From a phage, in the NCBI GenBank assembly GCA_033286805.1, contig GCA_033286805.1_4727.1: 64,000 nt of DNA, one strand, 5' to 3'. Positions 7,442 to 57,491 of this stretch are shown piece after piece. The position numbers and the translations under genes are program-made. The first letter of the stretch is position 1. Each line of letters begins with the position of its first letter. The notes under the pieces were generated by a model. The model ran no database searches. It was not told where the DNA came from and saw only the letters and a program-made list of their open reading frames with translations.

Positions 7442-10400
7442 TACATAAACTCCTCGATGATGCAAATCCCATTAGCACCACGCCCACCAGGCTTAGCGGT
7501 TCCTGAGTAAGAGTTATCGTAAGCACCGCCACCACCCGAACCAGGCGCGAGGCCGTTATGGGCGGTGCCAACACCAGCGCGACCGCCACCGCCCCAATAT
7601 GACGCACCCCCACATCCACCGACGGCAAGAGTACCGGCTTGTCCATCGTTACCGTCTCCGCCCGGAATGCGTATATCCCCGGTAGTAGGTACGCCCCCAT
7701 AGCCACCGCCAGTGTTTGTGACAGTTGTTTTTCCTGCGCCTTGCCCGCCGGGAGCAGTTAGCAGGGATGCAAATTTACTATCCCCACCCCCGTTCCCAGA
7801 CGTCGCCCCAGAGCCACCGGAACCACCAGAACCAATTACAACAGAATAACTAGCAGCTGTTACCGTTATAACCGAAATTACTGTTCCGCCAGCGCCTCCC
7901 CCAGCGCCAAAAAACGTTTCGCTGTTGGAATAAGCCTGACAGCCACCGCCGCCACCGCCGCCACCGGTTATTGTTACTCTAATCCGTTTTGTTCCTTGTG
8001 TTGGGGTGTACGTCCCTGACGATGTGAAAACACGCATGTTCAGTAAACGTCCGACATATCCGCTAGAATCGGCTAAACCAAGATCTTTAGCTGCTAACGT
8101 GATATTAGCTGTACCGTCAAACGGTTTACCGTTAATCGTGCGCGCGGTCTGCAACTTCGTCGCCGTTGCTGCGTTTCCTGATGTGTTCTGGTTCCCCGCA
8201 GCGTTAACACCCGGCAGATTGATGTTCGCACTACCGTCGAAAGATACCCCACCAATGGTGCGGGCTGTTTTCAGTTTTGTCGCCGTGGCAGCATTACCGG
8301 TTGTGTCTTGGTTACCGGTGGTGTTTACCCCAGGCAGGTTGATATTTGCCGTTCCGTTAAATGAAACACCGCCAATCGTCCTTGCTGTTTGAAGCCTCGT
8401 CGCGGTAGCGGCGTTACCCGTCGTGTTCTGGTTTCCGGTTGTGTTCACACCAGGGATACTATCTTTCGAGGTGTAGATCTGTGCCCATTCTGACCAGTTC
8501 GAATCGGCCGCATCACGACGTGAACGTAGGTAAGCTGGAGCGTATGCACCTGAGGTACCTGACCACCCAATGAGGATTTCACCTTCACCGACCGATGAAG
8601 CCCCTTTAAGATGAATGACGTTACCATAAGCGGTGGGATACCCGTTATTGTACGCTTCATACATCTGGATGCCCGCATTGCTGCCCTGAGCCGTGTTAGC
8701 TAATGCCGTAACACGACCTTTGGAGGCGAGAGCGGTAATACTGAAGCTAATATCCTTAGTACCGTCAAAGGCGACCCCATTAATCTTCCGTGCTGTTTGG
8801 AGTTTCGTGGCGGTAGCCGCATTACCAGAGGTACTCTGATTACCTGCTTTGTTCACGCCAGGCAAATCAATGTTGGCTGTTCCATCAAAGGACACGCCCC
8901 CTATGGTTCTCGCTGTCTGGAGTTTTGTTGCTGAGCCAGCGTTTCCGGAAGTGCTTTGATTACCTGCCGCGTTGACACCTGGTAGGTTAATGCTAGCAGA
9001 GCCATCAAAAGAAACTCCACCGATCGTGATTGGTGTTTTCAATTTCGTGGCTGTCGCAGCATTACCCGTCGTATTCTGATTGCCAGCCGCATTAACGCCT
9101 GGTAATGCGATATCGGTCGTACCATCGAACGCGACACCACCGATTTTACGGGCAGTCTGTAGCTTGGTCGCTGTAGCCGCGTTGCCGCTGGTATTTTGCG
9201 TGCCCGCTTTATTTACGCCTGGTAAATCAATGTTCGCAGTACCATCAAAAGAAACACCCCCGATGGTTCTCGCGGTCTCAAGTTTGGTTGCGCTTCCTGC
9301 GTTTCCGCTGGTGTCTTGGTTTCCCGCTGCATCAACACCCGGTAGACTGATGCTGGCCGAACCATCGAAACTCACACCACCGATCGTAACAGCGGTTTTC
9401 AATTTCGTAGCGGTTGCAGCGTTCCCCGTGGTATTTTGGTTACCTGTCGCATTCACACCCGGTAATGCAATATCCGCTGTTCCGTCAAAGGCAACGCCAC
9501 CGATTCTACGTGCAGTTTGTAGCTTGGTTGCACTAGCAGCGTTACCGCTGGTATTCTGGGTGCCAGCTTTGTTAACACCAGGGAGATCGATGTTAGCAGA
9601 ACCATCGAAGCTAACGCCACCTATCGTTCTTGCAGTAGCAAGTTTAGCTGCTGTAGCAGCGGCGTTACCGACTTTTAACCATTCGCCCCATGGACCATCC
9701 TGGCCGTTCCATGATGCCGTTAAACTACGTACGTAAATATTGCCGGTACATACAGTGTAACGTTGCGTTCCACCGAATTGCCCGGTTGGGAGCACTTCAA
9801 TGTAACCTGCGGCATTTGCTTCAGGGAAATTGTGGGCGACGTCCGCGTTCGTTGATACTGGTTTAGACCAAATACCCACAGACGCTTCAACCGGACCGTA
9901 CGTATTCAGATTTGCGTCGGTGGGAAGTTGTCCTCGAAAACGCTGGAATTGTGTTGCCGATAACCCCAACGTTGTTTGCATGCTTTCAATGCTGGATTGC
10001 TGAAGTAACGTCCGTGCTGTCGACGTAATCACGGTAAGCGCAACTTTATTAACACCGGTGAAATACGGGAGTTTGTCTGCTGATGTCGCTAAACCTGAAA
10101 AGGCGGTCAGTAATGCGTTAAGGGGCTGCTTCCCAGCTAACGCATTTGTTACCGTCGTTGCGAAATTAGGATCACTTCCTATAGCTCGAGCCAGCTTATT
10201 AAGCGTATTTAGCGTCGCTGGTGACGAGTCGATCAGCGCCGTGATCGCACGCATCACAAATTCCGTGTTGGCTATCTGTCGACTGCTATTGTTAACTGCT
10301 GCGGTGGGCGCTGCTGGCGTACCAGTGAATACAGGGCTATTAAGATCCGCCTTGAGGGCGATGAGACGTTTAAGCGCTTCAACATCAACTTTCAGGTTTT

Positions 10401-17948: not shown

Positions 17949-18122
17949 TTCTATTCCTCAAATAAAGATTGTCTTTTAACGCGACATGATTACAAGTACA
18001 CAGGTTACTGGATTTCTGTAAAAGTTAATTTTCGTAAACTAAAAGAAAATGTATCCGTGTTTCTTGGTTCTTCCCCTCCACAGCCTCAGGAAGAGAAGAA
18101 CCGTTTGCTAAGTTGTTATGTA

Positions 18123-23201: not shown

Positions 23202-23283
23202 GATTACTGTCCTTTTGAAATATGTTTAGATAAGGAGGATTTACCGGGTATTAAAAAGTTATTTGGTATGTAATGTTTTTTTT

Positions 23284-23883
23284 TTACTTAGGTTCCAGTA
23301 TTGGTCCGAACAACCAGAATGTCAGACGCTGGTAAACCTGTTCGATGACTGCGGCTTCTGTTTGCTCTTCTAGCGCTTTCCCTTTCTTATGTTGTATTTC
23401 TGGCGGGATGTCGCCGTTGTAAACATACCCTGCTGAGAAGTCCCACGCCAGCCGTTTACCGAAAGTAGGTAAGAACACCTCTTCGAATCGGAACGCTTTC
23501 GAATTCCAATGAAGCAGCTGATCGGATTCAACATGTAAAGCTTTATTACGTTTGCTTGGCATGTTTCCGAAGTACTGAACGATAGCTGATTTCATAACCC
23601 GATCTGCGAAGTCTTTGGCTTCGACCTCATCGAGGGGAGGCAGACGATGCGATAGATTCAGCTTGCGTTGTTCAACATCTATCTTACGCATCGCTTTAAT
23701 CAAATCACCAGGAACGATTTTACCCTTATGGCCTTCCTGTCGGTGTATGAAACACCCCTGGAATAGCACGCAAAGTTCTTGAGGTGCTGTACTTTCCATT
23801 CGTCCGTAAGCAACGATCACCGAACGACGACGATCAATAACTTCGCGGATAAACCGCGGCTCAGTAATACTCACCACTGTCAT
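23284..23883 (-). CDS. hypothetical protein
   Basis: 199-aa ORF. Confidence 0.5.
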   Translation of the reverse strand: MTVVSITEPRFIREVIDRRRSVIVAYGRMESTAPQELCVLFQGCFIHRQEGHKGKIVPGDLIKAMRKIDVEQRKLNLSHRLPPLDEVEAKDFADRVMKSAIVQYFGNMPSKRNKALHVESDQLLHWNSKAFRFEEVFLPTFGKRLAWDFSAGYVYNGDIPPEIQHKKGKALEEQTEAAVIEQVYQRLTFWLFGPILEPK

Positions 23884-49793: not shown

Positions 49794-49829
49794 CTCCTCC
49801 CCAGGAAAGGTGTGGGGAGGAGTTTTTAT
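49794..49829 (+). terminator. terminator-like hairpin with T tract in the divergent region
   Basis: 9-bp stem CCTCCTCCC / GGGGAGGAG followed by TTTTTAT on the plus strand, ~30 nt upstream of the helicase ATG (49858). Confidence 0.45.
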
Positions 49830-49857
49830 CATACATTCTATTAAATCGAGCGCGATT

Positions 49858-51939
49858 ATGTTGGATAGAATCAATCGTTTAATGAACCGAATAACGGTTA
49901 AAAATCAGAGTAACAATACCGTGCATATCGGGGGTATCGATGCCTGGCGTCTTTCAGATGACATTCAGCGAATATGGGGTACCTCCCGATTTATGAAACA
50001 TATGTTTCGTAATTTCTCTTCTAGTGGACTCAGTCTCCACAATTTTTACCTTCCCGATTTCGTTTATATTCTCGAAACGATCATCGAAGCAAAGAATACC
50101 CGCAGTAATAAACGCATGCTGAAACACCTTATTGAGGTACTGCTGCAGGAAACCTGGTTGCAAAATACCACAATCGAGCAACCTGCAATCCTCGATAAAG
50201 CACGCATGAACAAAATGCTAACGCTCTCCCTGTTCGATTATCAAGATGAGTTTATCGACATCTATAACCGTAACGTACCTAAATATCGACTGAAAGGATA
50301 CGTGTGTGCGATGGGTGCGGGTGCTGGTAAAACAATCACCGCATTGGCTTTAAGCGCCGCAATGAACGTCGACGTATTTGTGGTCTGCTGTCCTAAGAAC
50401 ACCATGCGTTCAGCATGGCAATCCGATGTAAACAAAGCCATCGTTGACCCCGCAACAGAAACCGCATTCTGGTCAGATACAATGCCACCATCACAGCTGC
50501 AGAAAAGCGATAAGTATTATTTTCTGCATTACGAGTCGATGGGTTTATTAAACGATGTAATGATCAAGCATAAACGCACCGCGAAGCGAGTTCTTATTGT
50601 TGTTGACGAAAGCCATAACTTCAACGACAAGAACAGCCAACGTTCCCAACGACTGGTTGATCTCGTACAGACGATGCGTCAGACCATGAATGCTGATGTT
50701 CATGTCTTGTTTATGTCGGGTACGCCTGTTAAACAAATGGGTTCTGAGATGATCCCGTGTTTAGGTTGTATTGACCCAATGTTCCAAGGACAGGTGGTCG
50801 ATAGCTTCAAAGCAATTTACGGTTTAACCAGCAGTCGCGCTAACGATATCCTCAGACATCGTCTTGGGTTCATGATGCATGTCGTACCTAAAGAGGCTTA
50901 TCGTAAAACCCGTCCGGAAGTTCAGGACGTTTACGTGAAGCTCCCTAACGGTAGCGATTATACCATCTCAAGTATCCGCGACGACATGGCGATATTTGTA
51001 CGCGATCGGGCAAAGTATTACAAGGATAACTGGGGGCATTACAGAAAGATTTTTGATGACGCCTTGGACTACTATCGTAAGACTATTCGTACCGATGGTG
51101 AACGTAAAGAGCTATCTCGATACGAATCGATTGTTGCTCGTTTCCAGAAAGGTTACGACCCCGTCAGAGACAAAGAAGATGCGATGTTCTGCAACGCGTT
51201 TGAAAAACGTTCCATCATGCCGGTTCTTCCTTCCGATTTAAGGGTTGCTTTCAAAGACGCCAAGAGCGTCATCAAGTACGTTGGGTTGAAAATTCAGGGT
51301 GAAGCGTTGGCACGTGTTCTAGGTGCAGCCCGCATTCGGTGTCATGTCGACATGGTGGAGTACATCGACTTCGAAGGGTACATCAATAACGCCGAAGCCA
51401 AAGTGTTGATCTTCACGTCGTACGTTCAGGTGGTTGAACGCGTCGACAACATGCTTCGTGATGCGGGTTTCTTACCTGAACCCATTTACGGGAAGACCAA
51501 CAAGAACATCAACCAAATACTTGCTCGTCTACGCGATGATCCTGACAGCGGTCCCGCTATCGCAACATTTGATAGCTTAGCTGAAGGGGTTCCGATGCTG
51601 ATGTGTAATGTCGGCCTTTTCCTGAACAATCCATGGCGTTCATCCGATGAAATCCAAGCCATCAGCCGTCTCGATCGTGTAGGGCAAACGCAGCCCGTTC
51701 GGATTTATCGTTTCATGTTGGATACAGGAAGCGAGGGTAACGTTTCTACACGTAGCCACGAAATCATGGAGTTAAGTCGACAGCTTGTTGAAGAAATCAC
51801 GGGTGTCAAATATGTAGTGAACAAGCAAGACGATGTTAACTTGCAAGAAACGTTGGCGATGGAAGGATACGATCAATACGTTACCGTAAACACCACGGAA
51901 TACGATATTAAACCGCGACCTGCATTCTTGGAATGGTGA
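49858..51939 (+). CDS. SF2-type helicase/ATPase
   Basis: Walker A-like CAMGAGAGKTITAL and DExH-like box VLIVVDESHNF. Start set at ATG 49858 (MLDRINRL); the longer track ORF starts at a GTG inside the hairpin. Confidence 0.55.
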   Translation: MLDRINRLMNRITVKNQSNNTVHIGGIDAWRLSDDIQRIWGTSRFMKHMFRNFSSSGLSLHNFYLPDFVYILETIIEAKNTRSNKRMLKHLIEVLLQETWLQNTTIEQPAILDKARMNKMLTLSLFDYQDEFIDIYNRNVPKYRLKGYVCAMGAGAGKTITALALSAAMNVDVFVVCCPKNTMRSAWQSDVNKAIVDPATETAFWSDTMPPSQLQKSDKYYFLHYESMGLLNDVMIKHKRTAKRVLIVVDESHNFNDKNSQRSQRLVDLVQTMRQTMNADVHVLFMSGTPVKQMGSEMIPCLGCIDPMFQGQVVDSFKAIYGLTSSRANDILRHRLGFMMHVVPKEAYRKTRPEVQDVYVKLPNGSDYTISSIRDDMAIFVRDRAKYYKDNWGHYRKIFDDALDYYRKTIRTDGERKELSRYESIVARFQKGYDPVRDKEDAMFCNAFEKRSIMPVLPSDLRVAFKDAKSVIKYVGLKIQGEALARVLGAARIRCHVDMVEYIDFEGYINNAEAKVLIFTSYVQVVERVDNMLRDAGFLPEPIYGKTNKNINQILARLRDDPDSGPAIATFDSLAEGVPMLMCNVGLFLNNPWRSSDEIQAISRLDRVGQTQPVRIYRFMLDTGSEGNVSTRSHEIMELSRQLVEEITGVKYVVNKQDDVNLQETLAMEGYDQYVTVNTTEYDIKPRPAFLEW

Positions 51940-54860: not shown

Positions 54861-57491
54861 TTACAATTCAAAATCTTCATCGATAACACGCTGGGTAAGC
54901 ACTTTGTCGCTGAAGAACTCCACCTTGCGCTGATGGTATTTACGGTGCGCTTCGATAGAAGTACATACCAGATACCAGAACGTTGGCGTCATTCCTTCAA
55001 ACTTCCCTTTCAGCTGACGCAGTCGTCCCAACACCTGAATGTTGCCGGTTCGTGACCCCATCGCTAACGTCATGAACGTCATCACCAAGTCAGGAAGGTC
55101 GATACCGGTACCTGCCGATTTCACGGTTGTAACGCTAATATCGTTATCCAGCAAGACCATGAAATCTTCTTCAGCAGTATAAGGACCGATCTCTAGCTCA
55201 GGAATACGTTCACTGAGATAATGCGACAACGACTTACACATATCAACGGTTGCACAATACACCAGCATCTTCATACCTTCCTGATACTGGTTCATAAAAC
55301 CTTTGATAATAACGGTATAGATGAAGTTAAAGTACGCGAGTTTGAGTTGCTTGTTCTTCATGATAGACTGTTCAAATATCGTGTGCGAATAAGCTCCACC
55401 AAACCCTTTGTATCTGACTTTATCTGTACTGCGTAGTCGATATGTTACCGCATTTACCGCAATGTATTTCTTGTATTCGCCTTTCGCATAACGGGCTTCT
55501 TTCGGATACATCAAATACAGCATCTGTTCGATAAACGGATCATCGGATACCGCTGTTGCCGACAGATAAATGATTTCCGGAATATTGGCGTAACACTTGA
55601 CCTTAAACAAGAAATGCAATGCTTCGTGACACTCGTCATGAATCAGCAAACCTATGCCGGTCTTTTCCCAAAACTCAGCGGGATGGAAGGCATATGGCGC
55701 AACGCAGTTATTCTTCTCGTAGTCCGCAATATAACGTTGGAACATGTTCAAGGAGAACAATGCGATTTTGAAGTCGAGTTCACCCTGTTCAACCAAGGTT
55801 TGAAACTCCAGCATGCTGTAACGAGGAATGTCGGGATGCGGTGGATCCTCCTTAGCGTTCCCGCGTATCTCGATAACATCCCCTGGTTCCATCCCGAAGA
55901 AGTTCAGCAGCGAGCTTCGCCAACCTGGCATATACCGTGGAGAAAGTATAATGCCTGTGCGCACACCCCGTCTAAACACGATTTCCTGCGACATCGCGGT
56001 GTTGTGTGTGACGATAAAGTCTTTCACCACAAACAACGCTGAAGGATCATCGATCGTAATGCAACGTGCATCCGCAACACGGGAAGGTTTGATTGACAGT
56101 ACACGCAGCATACTTTCGAAGTATTGTCCGTCGACAGGACAACGTTCCAGCTTCTTCGGAAGTGTAACGATTTCATGTGGACGTTTATACCGTATCGTAA
56201 CCATGTACGCCAATCGTCCCTTATGTCTTTCCCCCTTGTAGGTGTAATACGGTTGTTTAATACGTAGACGAGCATATCCACCGATCGAACGAACCAAGTA
56301 GATAACGTCATCTGAAAGCTGTTTGCTCGAAGTACAGAAAACAATAGATCCGCCTTTATCTACCGTTCCGTCGGTATCGATAAGACCTGCAAGTATTTCG
56401 CAACGCTGTCTATGCGACGCCATCATGTACTGTTTCGGAACAAACTTCTCCCAGGCTCGTTTACCCATCAACCCCAACTGATCAAGCGCGGATGCTGTCT
56501 CCGACCGCCCACCGTAATTGATTAACGTTGCGGCAGGCGTCTTCGTTACCGCATAGTCGTATTTGTCACGGTACTGTATTTCACAGTCATCAGGAAGACG
56601 ACTTAACACCTTATTCAAGATGAAATCGTCAGGAGTTGTAATGATTGGAGATGTCGTTAAATGACCGTCCCCTAACAGAACACCAAGCACGTACGGATCA
56701 AGCGGTAAATCTGCATCAGGAGTATCCTCAGACTCACAATACGGAATGTAAAGTCGTTTATTGGACAGCTCCAGGATACGAATCATCTCAAGTGTATTGA
56801 TAACCCGCATGGGATAAGGATTGTTTTTGTCCCATCCCCAGTTAGGTCTCATGCACGCCCAGAGATGCTCGCCGCAGGCTTCAACACGACGACCGTCAGC
56901 AAAGACAATCTCATAGAGCTGTTTTGCTTTATGGTCGAAGATATTGGTTACCTTCGTTGGTCGGCCATTAGCAGCCGTGATGGTATCACCTAGCTTCAAA
57001 TCGCCTAATTGACGCCATCCGCCAGGGACTTTTACGAGCGTGGTAAGCGGATTCGCTTTACCAGACCCCGTTTGAGCGGTGTTTAGGCTCATTCTGAAGG
57101 GGGTATCCTTACCCCCGTTCATGTACTCCAGCCATTCTTGTTGATCTTCACGCCACGGAAACTTCCATTTCTTTACGAACTCCACTTCCTTACCTGGTAC
57201 CGGATCGTGATAAACGATTTCCAACCACTCTTTTCGGATTCCTCGAGAGAAGATAAAATCCAAAAACGATTTCAACTGTTCGCGGAGTAAGTATACCTCG
57301 CTATAATCGCTTCTCGCTGCGGCGTAGGTGTTAATGGTATCGGTGACCATTCTCCGTGTACGAGGGTCGCGTCGTTTCCGTAGATGCAAACAACGGTCTC
57401 GAAGGTAATGGCCAATCAAATGGGCAAATCGAAGTCCGTATCCGCTCAGCCTCATGCCATGCGAGAAGACGTCGATACGAGCTAACTTCAT
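54861..57491 (-). CDS. SF2 helicase-like ATPase interrupted by an intein
   Basis: Motif I AQTGSGK is followed by ~352 inserted residues ending HN, then T and the rest of the extein including DExH box LLIHDECHE. ATG at 57489-57491 overlaps the beta-prime stop (ATGA). Confidence 0.65.
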   Translation of the reverse strand: MKLARIDVFSHGMRLSGYGLRFAHLIGHYLRDRCLHLRKRRDPRTRRMVTDTINTYAAARSDYSEVYLLREQLKSFLDFIFSRGIRKEWLEIVYHDPVPGKEVEFVKKWKFPWREDQQEWLEYMNGGKDTPFRMSLNTAQTGSGKANPLTTLVKVPGGWRQLGDLKLGDTITAANGRPTKVTNIFDHKAKQLYEIVFADGRRVEACGEHLWACMRPNWGWDKNNPYPMRVINTLEMIRILELSNKRLYIPYCESEDTPDADLPLDPYVLGVLLGDGHLTTSPIITTPDDFILNKVLSRLPDDCEIQYRDKYDYAVTKTPAATLINYGGRSETASALDQLGLMGKRAWEKFVPKQYMMASHRQRCEILAGLIDTDGTVDKGGSIVFCTSSKQLSDDVIYLVRSIGGYARLRIKQPYYTYKGERHKGRLAYMVTIRYKRPHEIVTLPKKLERCPVDGQYFESMLRVLSIKPSRVADARCITIDDPSALFVVKDFIVTHNTAMSQEIVFRRGVRTGIILSPRYMPGWRSSLLNFFGMEPGDVIEIRGNAKEDPPHPDIPRYSMLEFQTLVEQGELDFKIALFSLNMFQRYIADYEKNNCVAPYAFHPAEFWEKTGIGLLIHDECHEALHFLFKVKCYANIPEIIYLSATAVSDDPFIEQMLYLMYPKEARYAKGEYKKYIAVNAVTYRLRSTDKVRYKGFGGAYSHTIFEQSIMKNKQLKLAYFNFIYTVIIKGFMNQYQEGMKMLVYCATVDMCKSLSHYLSERIPELEIGPYTAEEDFMVLLDNDISVTTVKSAGTGIDLPDLVMTFMTLAMGSRTGNIQVLGRLRQLKGKFEGMTPTFWYLVCTSIEAHRKYHQRKVEFFSDKVLTQRVIDEDFEL
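56001..57056 (-). mobile_element. intein with LAGLIDADG homing-endonuclease domain (in-frame within the helicase)
   Basis: Two LAGLIDADG-type motifs (VLGVLLGDGHL; ILAGLIDTDGTV), Hint-like N-terminal block (LKLGDTITAANG) and C-terminal VTHN followed by Thr. Residues ~146-497 of the host ORF; first intein residue appears to be Ala, so the N-boundary is tentative. Confidence 0.65.

Follow-up and report, generated by a model that had tools for sequence, protein, structure and literature searches.

A class 3 intein with a LAGLIDADG endonuclease domain, probably mobile, in the P-loop of a helicase of a Goslar-like jumbo phage

One gene in a 64,000-nucleotide (nt) stretch of phage DNA (NCBI GenBank assembly GCA_033286805.1, contig GCA_033286805.1_4727.1; this whole stretch is called the window below) encodes a superfamily 2 (SF2) helicase whose Walker A motif, or P-loop, is interrupted by several hundred additional residues. 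The locus raises the questions of what kind of element these residues form, how a helicase could be made from such a gene, and whether the element still moves between phages. A preliminary description, based on the letters of the sequence, had proposed a LAGLIDADG intein of about 352 residues. The analysis presented here indicates that the insertion is very probably a class 3 intein that is mobile and contains a LAGLIDADG homing endonuclease of the double-motif type.

Insertion in the helicase gene

The gene is an open reading frame (ORF) of 876 amino acids (aa) plus stop on the minus strand, intact over all 876 codons (Table 1). A megablast search of this gene against 50,697 phage records matched Escherichia phage Goslar only, with 90% identity, in two pieces and at 60% query coverage; the exact 876-aa protein is also present on Logan contig SRR24668568_171. 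When the protein is aligned with the intein-free Goslar gp164 ('DNA helicase', 524 aa), the exteins are 98% identical from end to end and the single gap corresponds exactly to aa 146-497. The inserted DNA of 1056 nt splits Walker A between Lys and Thr, giving the junctions ...NTAQTGSGK/ANPLTT... and ...FIVTHN/TAMSQ... (a slash marks the point of insertion). These junctions cannot slide, because K145 differs from N497 and A146 from T498. The segment is missing precisely from Goslar gp164, from the metagenomic protein P0001 and from phiKZ gp75, and the spliced product shares 98-99.6% identity with the intein-free alleles (Goslar and P0001). The window aligns collinearly to positions 92000-155528 of Goslar with ~96% identity, the intein being its sole insertion relative to Goslar, and a tblastn search with the intein found no second copy within the window.

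Much of the preliminary description is borne out by this alignment. The proposed intein inside Walker A proved to be exactly 352 aa long, with both junctions set by the Goslar protein, and its removal restores AQTGSGKT ahead of the DExH box (IHDECHEA, aa 617-624), as had been expected. The HN end followed by T (His496-Asn497 and Thr498) and the two LAGLIDADG motifs are also where they had been placed. The comparison with intein-free helicase homologues that had been suggested shows that homologues without the segment exist, and that segment-bearing homologues all carry intein blocks at this site.

Splicing domain and class assignment

Class 3 inteins have been known since 2010 and are regarded as phage-derived and helicase-associated (PMC5050341, PMC4031507, PMC7664689, from which the definition of the class used here is drawn); they are described as monophyletic, phage-born and spread among helicases (PMC4031507). 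They have no nucleophile at position 1 and carry a WCT triplet, Trp, Cys and Thr at B:12, F:4 and G:5, of which the block F Cys attacks the N-terminal junction first, forming a branched thioester that is passed to the +1 residue (PMC5050341, PMC4031507). In crystal structures of the class 3 intein MchDnaB1, a protease-like triad is made up of Cys124, His65 and Thr143, and Trp67 lies close by (PMC7664689).

In a phmmer comparison with PDB sequences, the N-terminal 70 residues of the window intein match the DnaB-1 mini-inteins of Mycobacterium chimaera and M. smegmatis (6rix, 6riy and 6bs8) and the gp41-1 intein (E 9e-8 to 2e-5), and a second, weak stretch aligns the last 27 intein residues. His209, Trp211, Cys477 and Thr495 fall on His65, Trp67, Cys124 and Thr143 of MchDnaB1 (6rix), and Thr495-His-Asn is aligned with Thr143-His-Asn of the same structure. 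The intein was further aligned with 47 relatives from a metagenomic protein collection, giving a family of 48 sequences. Cys F:4, Thr G:5, the terminal Asn and the block B His are each present in all of them; Trp B:12 is found in 44 (the other four have Phe) and the penultimate His in 46, and the +1 residue is Thr or Ser. Intein residue 1 is Ala in 30 sequences, Gly in five, Ser in three, Leu in two and Glu in two, with six rows gapped, and is never Cys; because it varies so freely across the family, this residue is not catalytic.

Position 1 of the window intein is occupied by Ala146, at an unambiguous junction, and not by the Cys, Ser or Thr nucleophile of class 1, nor does it hold the Cys or Ser that class 3 inteins lack there. 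Class 2 inteins, which are KlbA orthologues, combine Ala1 with Cys+1 and Ser at G:6 (PMC4031507); the window intein carries Thr at +1, His at G:6 and Cys, not Asp, at F:4. By every feature that can be tested in the sequence, the window element is a class 3 intein. The preliminary description was right about the boundary and the Ala, and what it called non-canonical is the class 3 arrangement, with its WCT motif and Cys at F:4. The position between Lys and Thr is the 'classic' P-loop intein insertion (PMC5050341), and a class 3 intein at this site of a phage helicase is the standard configuration of the class.

Table 1. Coordinates of the intein, its host gene and the adjoining RNA polymerase gene in the window. 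aa, residue of the 876-aa precursor unless intein residues are stated; AF2, AlphaFold.
Feature	Position	Strand	Basis or remark
Precursor ORF, gp75/gp164-type SF2 helicase with intein	54861..57491	-	Alignment with Goslar
N-extein, aa 1-145	57057..57491	-	Alignment with Goslar gp164 and P0001; ends in AQTGSGK (57057-57077)
Intein, aa 146-497 (352 aa, 1056 nt)	56001..57056	-	Gap in Goslar, AF2 model, fold matches
N-terminal Hint part, intein residues 1-100	56757..57056	-	Block A ANPLTTLVKVPGG; block B VEACGEHLWA
His209	56865-56867	-	phmmer alignment to MchDnaB1
Trp211 (B:12)	56859-56861	-	phmmer alignment to MchDnaB1
LAGLIDADG homing-endonuclease domain, intein residues ~101-312	56121..56756	-	Pfam, fold matches
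LAGLIDADG motif 1 PYVLGVLLGDG, aa 266-276	56664-56696	-	Asp275 at 56667-56669
LAGLIDADG motif 2 EILAGLIDTDG, aa 365-375	56367-56399	-	Asp374 at 56370-56372
C-terminal Hint part, intein residues 313-352	56001..56120	-	Block F VADARCITIDDPSALF; block G DFIVTHN
Cys477 (F:4)	56061-56063	-	Alignment to 6rix
Thr495 (G:5)	56007-56009	-	Alignment to 6rix
Asn497, preceded by His496	56001-56003	-	Alignment to 6rix
C-extein, aa 498-876	54864..56000	-	Thr498 (+1 nucleophile, 55998-56000) completes Walker A
69-nt C-extein block, probable co-conversion tract	55932..56000	-	Linked to intein occupancy
DExH box	55620-55643	-	C-extein motif
Motif III SAT	55548-55568	-	C-extein motif
Motif VI	55014-55040	-	C-extein motif
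Upstream gene, non-virion RNA polymerase beta-prime (C-terminal half), 668 aa	57488..59494	-	phiKZ gp74 homologue

Endonuclease domain and structure model

The isolated intein passes the Pfam cut-offs for LAGLIDADG_3 (E 5e-7) and Hom_end (E 1e-4). The search for intein profiles that the preliminary description had called for succeeded for the endonuclease only; the Hint domain stayed below the Pfam thresholds and was seen by phmmer and in a structure model. The catalytic Asp residues of the two LAGLIDADG motifs are conserved in 48 and 47 of the 48 family members, and both are intact in the window. An AlphaFold (AF2) model of the intein has a mean predicted local distance difference test score (pLDDT) of 94.6 and a predicted template modelling score (pTM) of 0.92. 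Its top PDB matches are TliVMA, PI-SceI (template modelling score by query, TMq, of 0.72) and PI-PfuI, with E 1e-18 to 1e-12 and TMq of at most 0.73, and the endonuclease domain also matches the fold of I-DmoI. In a Foldseek comparison the model matches the inteins MchDnaB1, MsmDnaB1, gp41-1 and Prp8 with scores by target (TMt) of 0.5-0.78, the Hint part reaching 0.75-0.78 on the class 3 inteins MchDnaB1 and MsmDnaB1. At the level of the predicted structure, the intein has the architecture of a Hint domain combined with a double-motif LAGLIDADG endonuclease.

The ratio of nonsynonymous to synonymous substitution rates (dN/dS) between the window and the sister allele L006 is 0.06 for the whole intein and 0.08 for the endonuclease domain, values that show purifying selection on both domains, so that both activities of the intein have been under selection. 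Among 14 alleles of the 352-aa intein (P0094-P0107), variation is concentrated in intein residues 111-201 (window 56454-56726), which lie in the first half of the endonuclease, for example at positions 134-138, 156-164 and 177-189, and the Hint parts and the second endonuclease half are almost invariant.

Allelic states and distribution

A search with the spliced protein revealed three states of the insertion site among proteins that share 97-100% identity in their exteins: an empty 524-aa form (140 cluster members), the 876-aa form with the 352-aa intein (66 members) and a 753-aa form with a 229-aa intein (158 members). The latter intein (P0003 and P0004; L007:3001-5262, L012:3001-5262 and L016-L019) occupies the same Lys/Thr site and keeps the class 3 residues, but lacks LAGLIDADG motifs. 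In its Hint parts it shares 56-62% identity with the window intein, and dN/dS between two of its alleles is 0.11. The central ~120 residues of the 229-aa inteins gave no BLASTP match to the window endonuclease domain and no profile matches. Similar short intein forms are also found in the more distant orthologues P0012 and P0013.

The first seven intein codons (window 57036-57056) are hypervariable between otherwise close alleles. Six versions occur among the window, L006, L007, L012 and L016-L018, namely ANPLTTL, SLINSTP, AVRLTTP, ALALHTP, AIPLNTP and AIPLTTP, one of them beginning with Ser; among the sister alleles, 4/14 have Ser at position 1 (SLINSTPV). A mosaic origin of these codons is suggested, because in this stretch the window resembles the 229-aa alleles more closely than its own sister allele.

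Proteins of the three states are encoded on contigs of ~237-249 kb, many of which come from assemblies labelled as isolates of Salmonella or E. coli. Such Goslar-like contigs were found in many assemblies of Salmonella enterica, of several serovars, and of E. coli, including O157. This suggests that Goslar-like jumbo phages are often carried along in clinical and surveillance isolates, and they may infect Salmonella as well as E. coli. In the Erwinia Agricanvirus group the phage Rebecca has an allelic intein at the same site and with the same synteny, and RAY, Ea35-70 and others lack it. A wider tblastn search with the intein detected similar segments in 872 phage records, at best with 38-44% identity. 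Nearly all members of the 48-sequence intein family are inserted at GxGK/T of a P-loop, in hosts that include PhoH, ClpX, SF2 helicases (SNF2 among them), terminases and nucleases.

Flanking sequence and mobility

The part of the C-extein next to the intein groups differently from the rest of the gene. A block of 69 nt has 20-22 substitutions relative to every empty allele, with a single amino-acid change (T505V), and the remaining 1071 nt have only 18-27 differences from the closest empty alleles and 47-51 from other intein-bearing alleles. Each comparison shows a significant excess of substitutions in the block (Fisher p 3e-9 to 1e-14), and synonymous divergence is saturated there as against 0.085 in the rest; the N-extein side has no comparable cluster. 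Within the block, intein-bearing alleles are separated by 2-6 differences, empty alleles including Goslar by 0-7, and the two groups by 18-22. The block thus groups by intein state, and the other 1071 nt group by backbone. Scanning of IMG/VR found no intein followed by an empty-type flank. As a separate observation, the intein-bearing alleles P0096 and P0099 read EITF, as the empty alleles do.

Such a block would be expected if a diverged donor had passed on adjacent sequence by co-conversion during homing, although conversion the other way, with loss of the intein, would produce an identical boundary. The polymorphism of the site, the 69-nt block and the low dN/dS of the intein (~0.06) together point to recent homing, and the intein is apparently still mobile. 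The shared block, the hypervariable first codons, the clustered variation in the endonuclease and an allele in which a catalytic Asp is replaced by Gly further suggest repeated recombination between intein alleles and the start of endonuclease decay, as the homing-cycle model predicts.

Outside the 69-nt block, the C-extein (window 54864-55931) is ~11% diverged from Goslar, with a synonymous divergence (dS) of 0.80, as compared with ~4% in the rest of the window and in the N-extein, the latter with a dS of 0.19. This divergent stretch starts at the intein insertion point. Since the empty alleles L008-L011 share the window's version of the C-extein, an older recombination boundary lies at the same position.

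Proposed mechanism and alternative explanations

Translation would give an 876-aa precursor with a disrupted P-loop. Cys477 (F:4), activated by His209 together with Thr495 and Trp211, would attack the Lys145-Ala146 bond and form a thioester branch at block F, from which the N-extein would be handed to the side chain of Thr498. Cyclisation of Asn497 would release the 352-aa intein, and an O-to-N shift would leave a 524-aa helicase, now active, in which AQTGSGKT is unbroken. In a co-infected cell the endonuclease of the released intein would cut the empty site of a relative, and repair off the intein-bearing genome would copy in the intein along with adjacent C-extein sequence, which is the process of homing.

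Several observations weigh against this account. Both splicing and DNA cleavage are inferred from the sequence. The Pfam Hint-type profiles Intein_splicing (E 0.03-0.07) and Hom_end_hint remain below the gathering threshold. In allele P0104 the catalytic Asp of motif 1 is replaced by Gly (D130G), so that endonuclease decay has set in for some of the population at least. The 69-nt block is common to the 352-aa and 229-aa inteins, whose Hint parts are only ~60% identical, and since two quite different inteins share it, a single simple invasion does not explain the history of the site. The block could also mark loss of the intein by conversion from an empty allele rather than its gain. Finally, exact-pattern scans of viral, metagenome and genome contigs found no empty allele with the block, in a search of low power that returned only four intein-linked positives.

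The likeliest alternative is a resident intein that splices but no longer moves, its endonuclease being inactive or retargeted and the polymorphism reflecting old events and ordinary phage recombination. The allele without LAGLIDADG motifs is commoner than the full one (158 vs 66 cluster members), the D130G change strikes a catalytic motif of a full-length allele, and a block common to two quite different inteins need not date from a recent invasion. Such immobility is nevertheless unlikely, given the dN/dS of 0.08 in the endonuclease, the two intact catalytic Asp residues of the window, and a C-extein that is nearer to empty than to intein-bearing alleles (18-27 as against 47-51 differences in 1071 nt), which indicates recent exchange at the site. 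A different splicing route, either that of class 2, with direct attack of the +1 residue on the N-terminal junction, or one like that of class 1 with a nucleophile near the N-terminus, is very improbable. Ala1 taken alone would fit class 2, and Ser1 occurs in 4/14 sister alleles; however, class 2 needs Cys+1 and Ser at G:6 (PMC4031507), where the window has Thr and His beside a complete and conserved WCT triplet, and free variation of residue 1 among Ala, Gly, Ser, Leu and Glu is incompatible with a catalytic role.

Equally slight is the probability that a Hint/endonuclease insertion which does not splice has inactivated the helicase and turned the gene effectively into a pseudogene. The P-loop is indeed disrupted in the precursor, and splicing itself is read from sequence, but the 876-codon frame is intact, every splicing residue is conserved, and the C-extein has dN 0.002 vs dS 0.17 relative to an empty allele, a sign of strong purifying selection; moreover, many independent assemblies contain the allele, on contigs of ~237-244 kb, and the helicase is conserved throughout phiKZ-like phages. 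There is practically no probability that the helicase possesses the 352 residues as an accessory domain of its own rather than as a mobile element. In-frame continuity is all that speaks for a native domain, whereas Goslar, P0001, phiKZ gp75, RAY and others lack precisely this segment, and P-loops of unrelated ATPases (PhoH, ClpX, terminases and SNF2 helicases) contain homologues of the segment. This explanation was rejected, as were the other splicing routes and the pseudogene, being already refuted by the Goslar alignment and the 48-sequence family alignment. A mobile class 3 intein with an embedded endonuclease therefore stands as the preferred explanation.

Host helicase and RNA polymerase neighbourhood

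The host protein is an orthologue of Goslar gp164 and of the intein-free phiKZ gp75 (28% identity over the full length, E 3e-55), an XPB-like SF2 helicase; similar genes occur in 290 phage records and throughout phiKZ-like phages. The spliced protein contains motifs I (AQTGSGKT), II (DECH), III (SAT) and VI (QVLGRLRQ). The Pfam families ResIII, DEAD and Helicase_C are all under their cut-offs, as is NCBIfam XPB (E 4e-7), by a wide margin. An AF2 model of the spliced helicase (pLDDT 86.9) has XPB/Ssl2 of TFIIH and archaeal XPB as top PDB matches (E 5e-14, TMq 0.5-0.59), followed by T4 UvsW and Snf2-type remodellers. The motifs and these fold matches confirm the SF2 helicase named in the preliminary description. 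Because the NCBIfam XPB match is far below cut-off, the likeness to XPB is a family-level resemblance and not orthology. In TFIIH, XPB/Ssl2 acts as the translocase by which promoters are opened for RNA polymerase II. A role of the phage helicase in transcription rather than replication is conceivable; a preprint on phiKZ handles gp75 as a replication helicase (10.1101/2024.03.24.586471).

The placing of the gene in a transcription neighbourhood also holds. The upstream gene of 668 aa is homologous to phiKZ gp74 (7ogp_D, E 1e-86), which in the non-virion RNA polymerase is the subunit resembling beta-prime; the remaining matches of the upstream gene are to the C-terminal half of bacterial beta-prime. 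The helicase ATG overlaps the TGA of this gene as ATGA (57488-57491), as had been noted, and the coupling of the two genes is kept in Goslar and, with a 17-nt overlap, in phiKZ. A 777-aa gene farther upstream matches phiKZ gp71-73, the beta-like subunit.

A second helicase gene, of SNF2/ResIII type, lies at window 49810-51939 (plus strand). It corresponds to Goslar gp160, has the P-loop GAGAGKT and is intein-free. This helicase is an orthologue of PhiPA3 gp233 (35% identity, E 2e-96), a protein whose P-loop is itself interrupted by a related intein, so that the intein family sits in two helicase genes of phiKZ-like phages.

Elsewhere the window lacks Goslar gp096, gp108 and gp120 (~500, 390 and 710 bp) at ~18030-18060, 23233-23284 and 29024, and its tail-fibre gene region (8454-10055) is strongly diverged from Goslar and internally repetitive.

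Implications

The find leaves general knowledge of inteins unchanged, and its immediate value is a correction of annotation. The window protein and its relatives have been deposited as 'hypothetical protein', as 'LAGLIDADG family homing endonuclease' or as two helicase coding sequences (CDS), where one conserved helicase with a class 3 intein should be seen. The poor annotation is probably due to the standard Pfam Hint profiles, which miss the splicing domain. Beyond this, near-identical phages of E. coli and Salmonella with an empty site, a full intein and an endonuclease-less intein, together with a visible footprint in the flank, form a natural three-state system that would permit direct measurement of homing, co-conversion and endonuclease decay in nucleus-forming phages.

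By analogy with PhiPA3 and phiKZ, the intein endonuclease might serve as an interference weapon between co-infecting Goslar-like phages, although this must be considered decidedly unlikely. If it were so, the endonuclease could reach the genome of a rival through import of the helicase, which it is made together with and which has to enter the proteinaceous phage nucleus, and the variable residues 111-201 and the recoded 69-nt flank would be traces of an arms race over target recognition. Independently of such a role, Cys477 could possibly make maturation of the helicase sensitive to redox state or zinc; sensitivity of this kind has been reported for the mycobacterial class 3 DnaB intein (PMC6195587, PMC7360933).

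Comparison with known systems

Among the papers covered, a full-text search found no description of this intein or of any intein in a phiKZ-like helicase. Close counterparts are in Erwinia phage Rebecca (gp251), Salmonella phage SA002 and Proteus phage 10, which have an intein in the same gene, at the same site (TGKGK/A...THN/T) and with the class 3 residues, the helicase again lying directly downstream of two RNA polymerase subunit genes. These inteins have diverged to 40-43% identity with that of the window. In GenBank the genes are called only 'RAD2/SF2 helicase', and none is annotated as intein-containing. The SA002 helicase (L003:4558-7148) is annotated as two CDS ('RAD2/SF2 helicase 1' and '2') because of a frame break at the N-terminal junction (...TLQTGKEKPNH*), which reflects either an error of sequencing or a real disruption of the allele.

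With the class 3 inteins of mycobacteriophage Bethlehem DnaB, of M. smegmatis and M. chimaera DnaB-1 (6bs8 and 6rix) and of Deinococcus radiodurans Snf2, the window intein has in common Ala1, Trp B:12, Cys F:4 and Thr G:5, as well as the His-Asn end, Thr or Ser at +1 and a helicase host of phage origin (PMC4031507). The solved DnaB-1 inteins are mini-inteins of ~130-145 residues without an endonuclease, whereas the window intein has a complete LAGLIDADG domain; identity to them is only ~30% over the N-terminal Hint part, and the host here is an XPB-like SF2 helicase of a jumbo phage and not DnaB or Snf2. The TerL1-a terminase inteins have the identical insertion point in GxGK/T and a LAGLIDADG endonuclease, and differ in host protein and phage group; PHROG terminase families containing P-loop inteins match residues 143-502 with E 2e-38. 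A Hint domain with an inserted double-motif LAGLIDADG endonuclease is likewise found in PI-SceI (yeast VMA1), TliVMA/PhoVMA and PI-PfuI, but these are class 1 inteins (Cys1) of eukaryotic or archaeal hosts, 12-17% identical and larger by at least 100 residues.

Among nucleus-forming jumbo phages, the window element resembles PhiPA3 gp210 in being a homing endonuclease in or next to a cluster of transcription genes and in its potential action on a co-infecting relative. As summarised in a published account (PMC13282480), gp210 is a homing endonuclease encoded within an intron, and its target is the RNA polymerase gene of phiKZ when the two phages infect the same cell. The PhiPA3 element is a group I intron with an endonuclease of another family whose effect has been shown experimentally (PMC13282480), in contrast to the window element, an intein known from its sequence.

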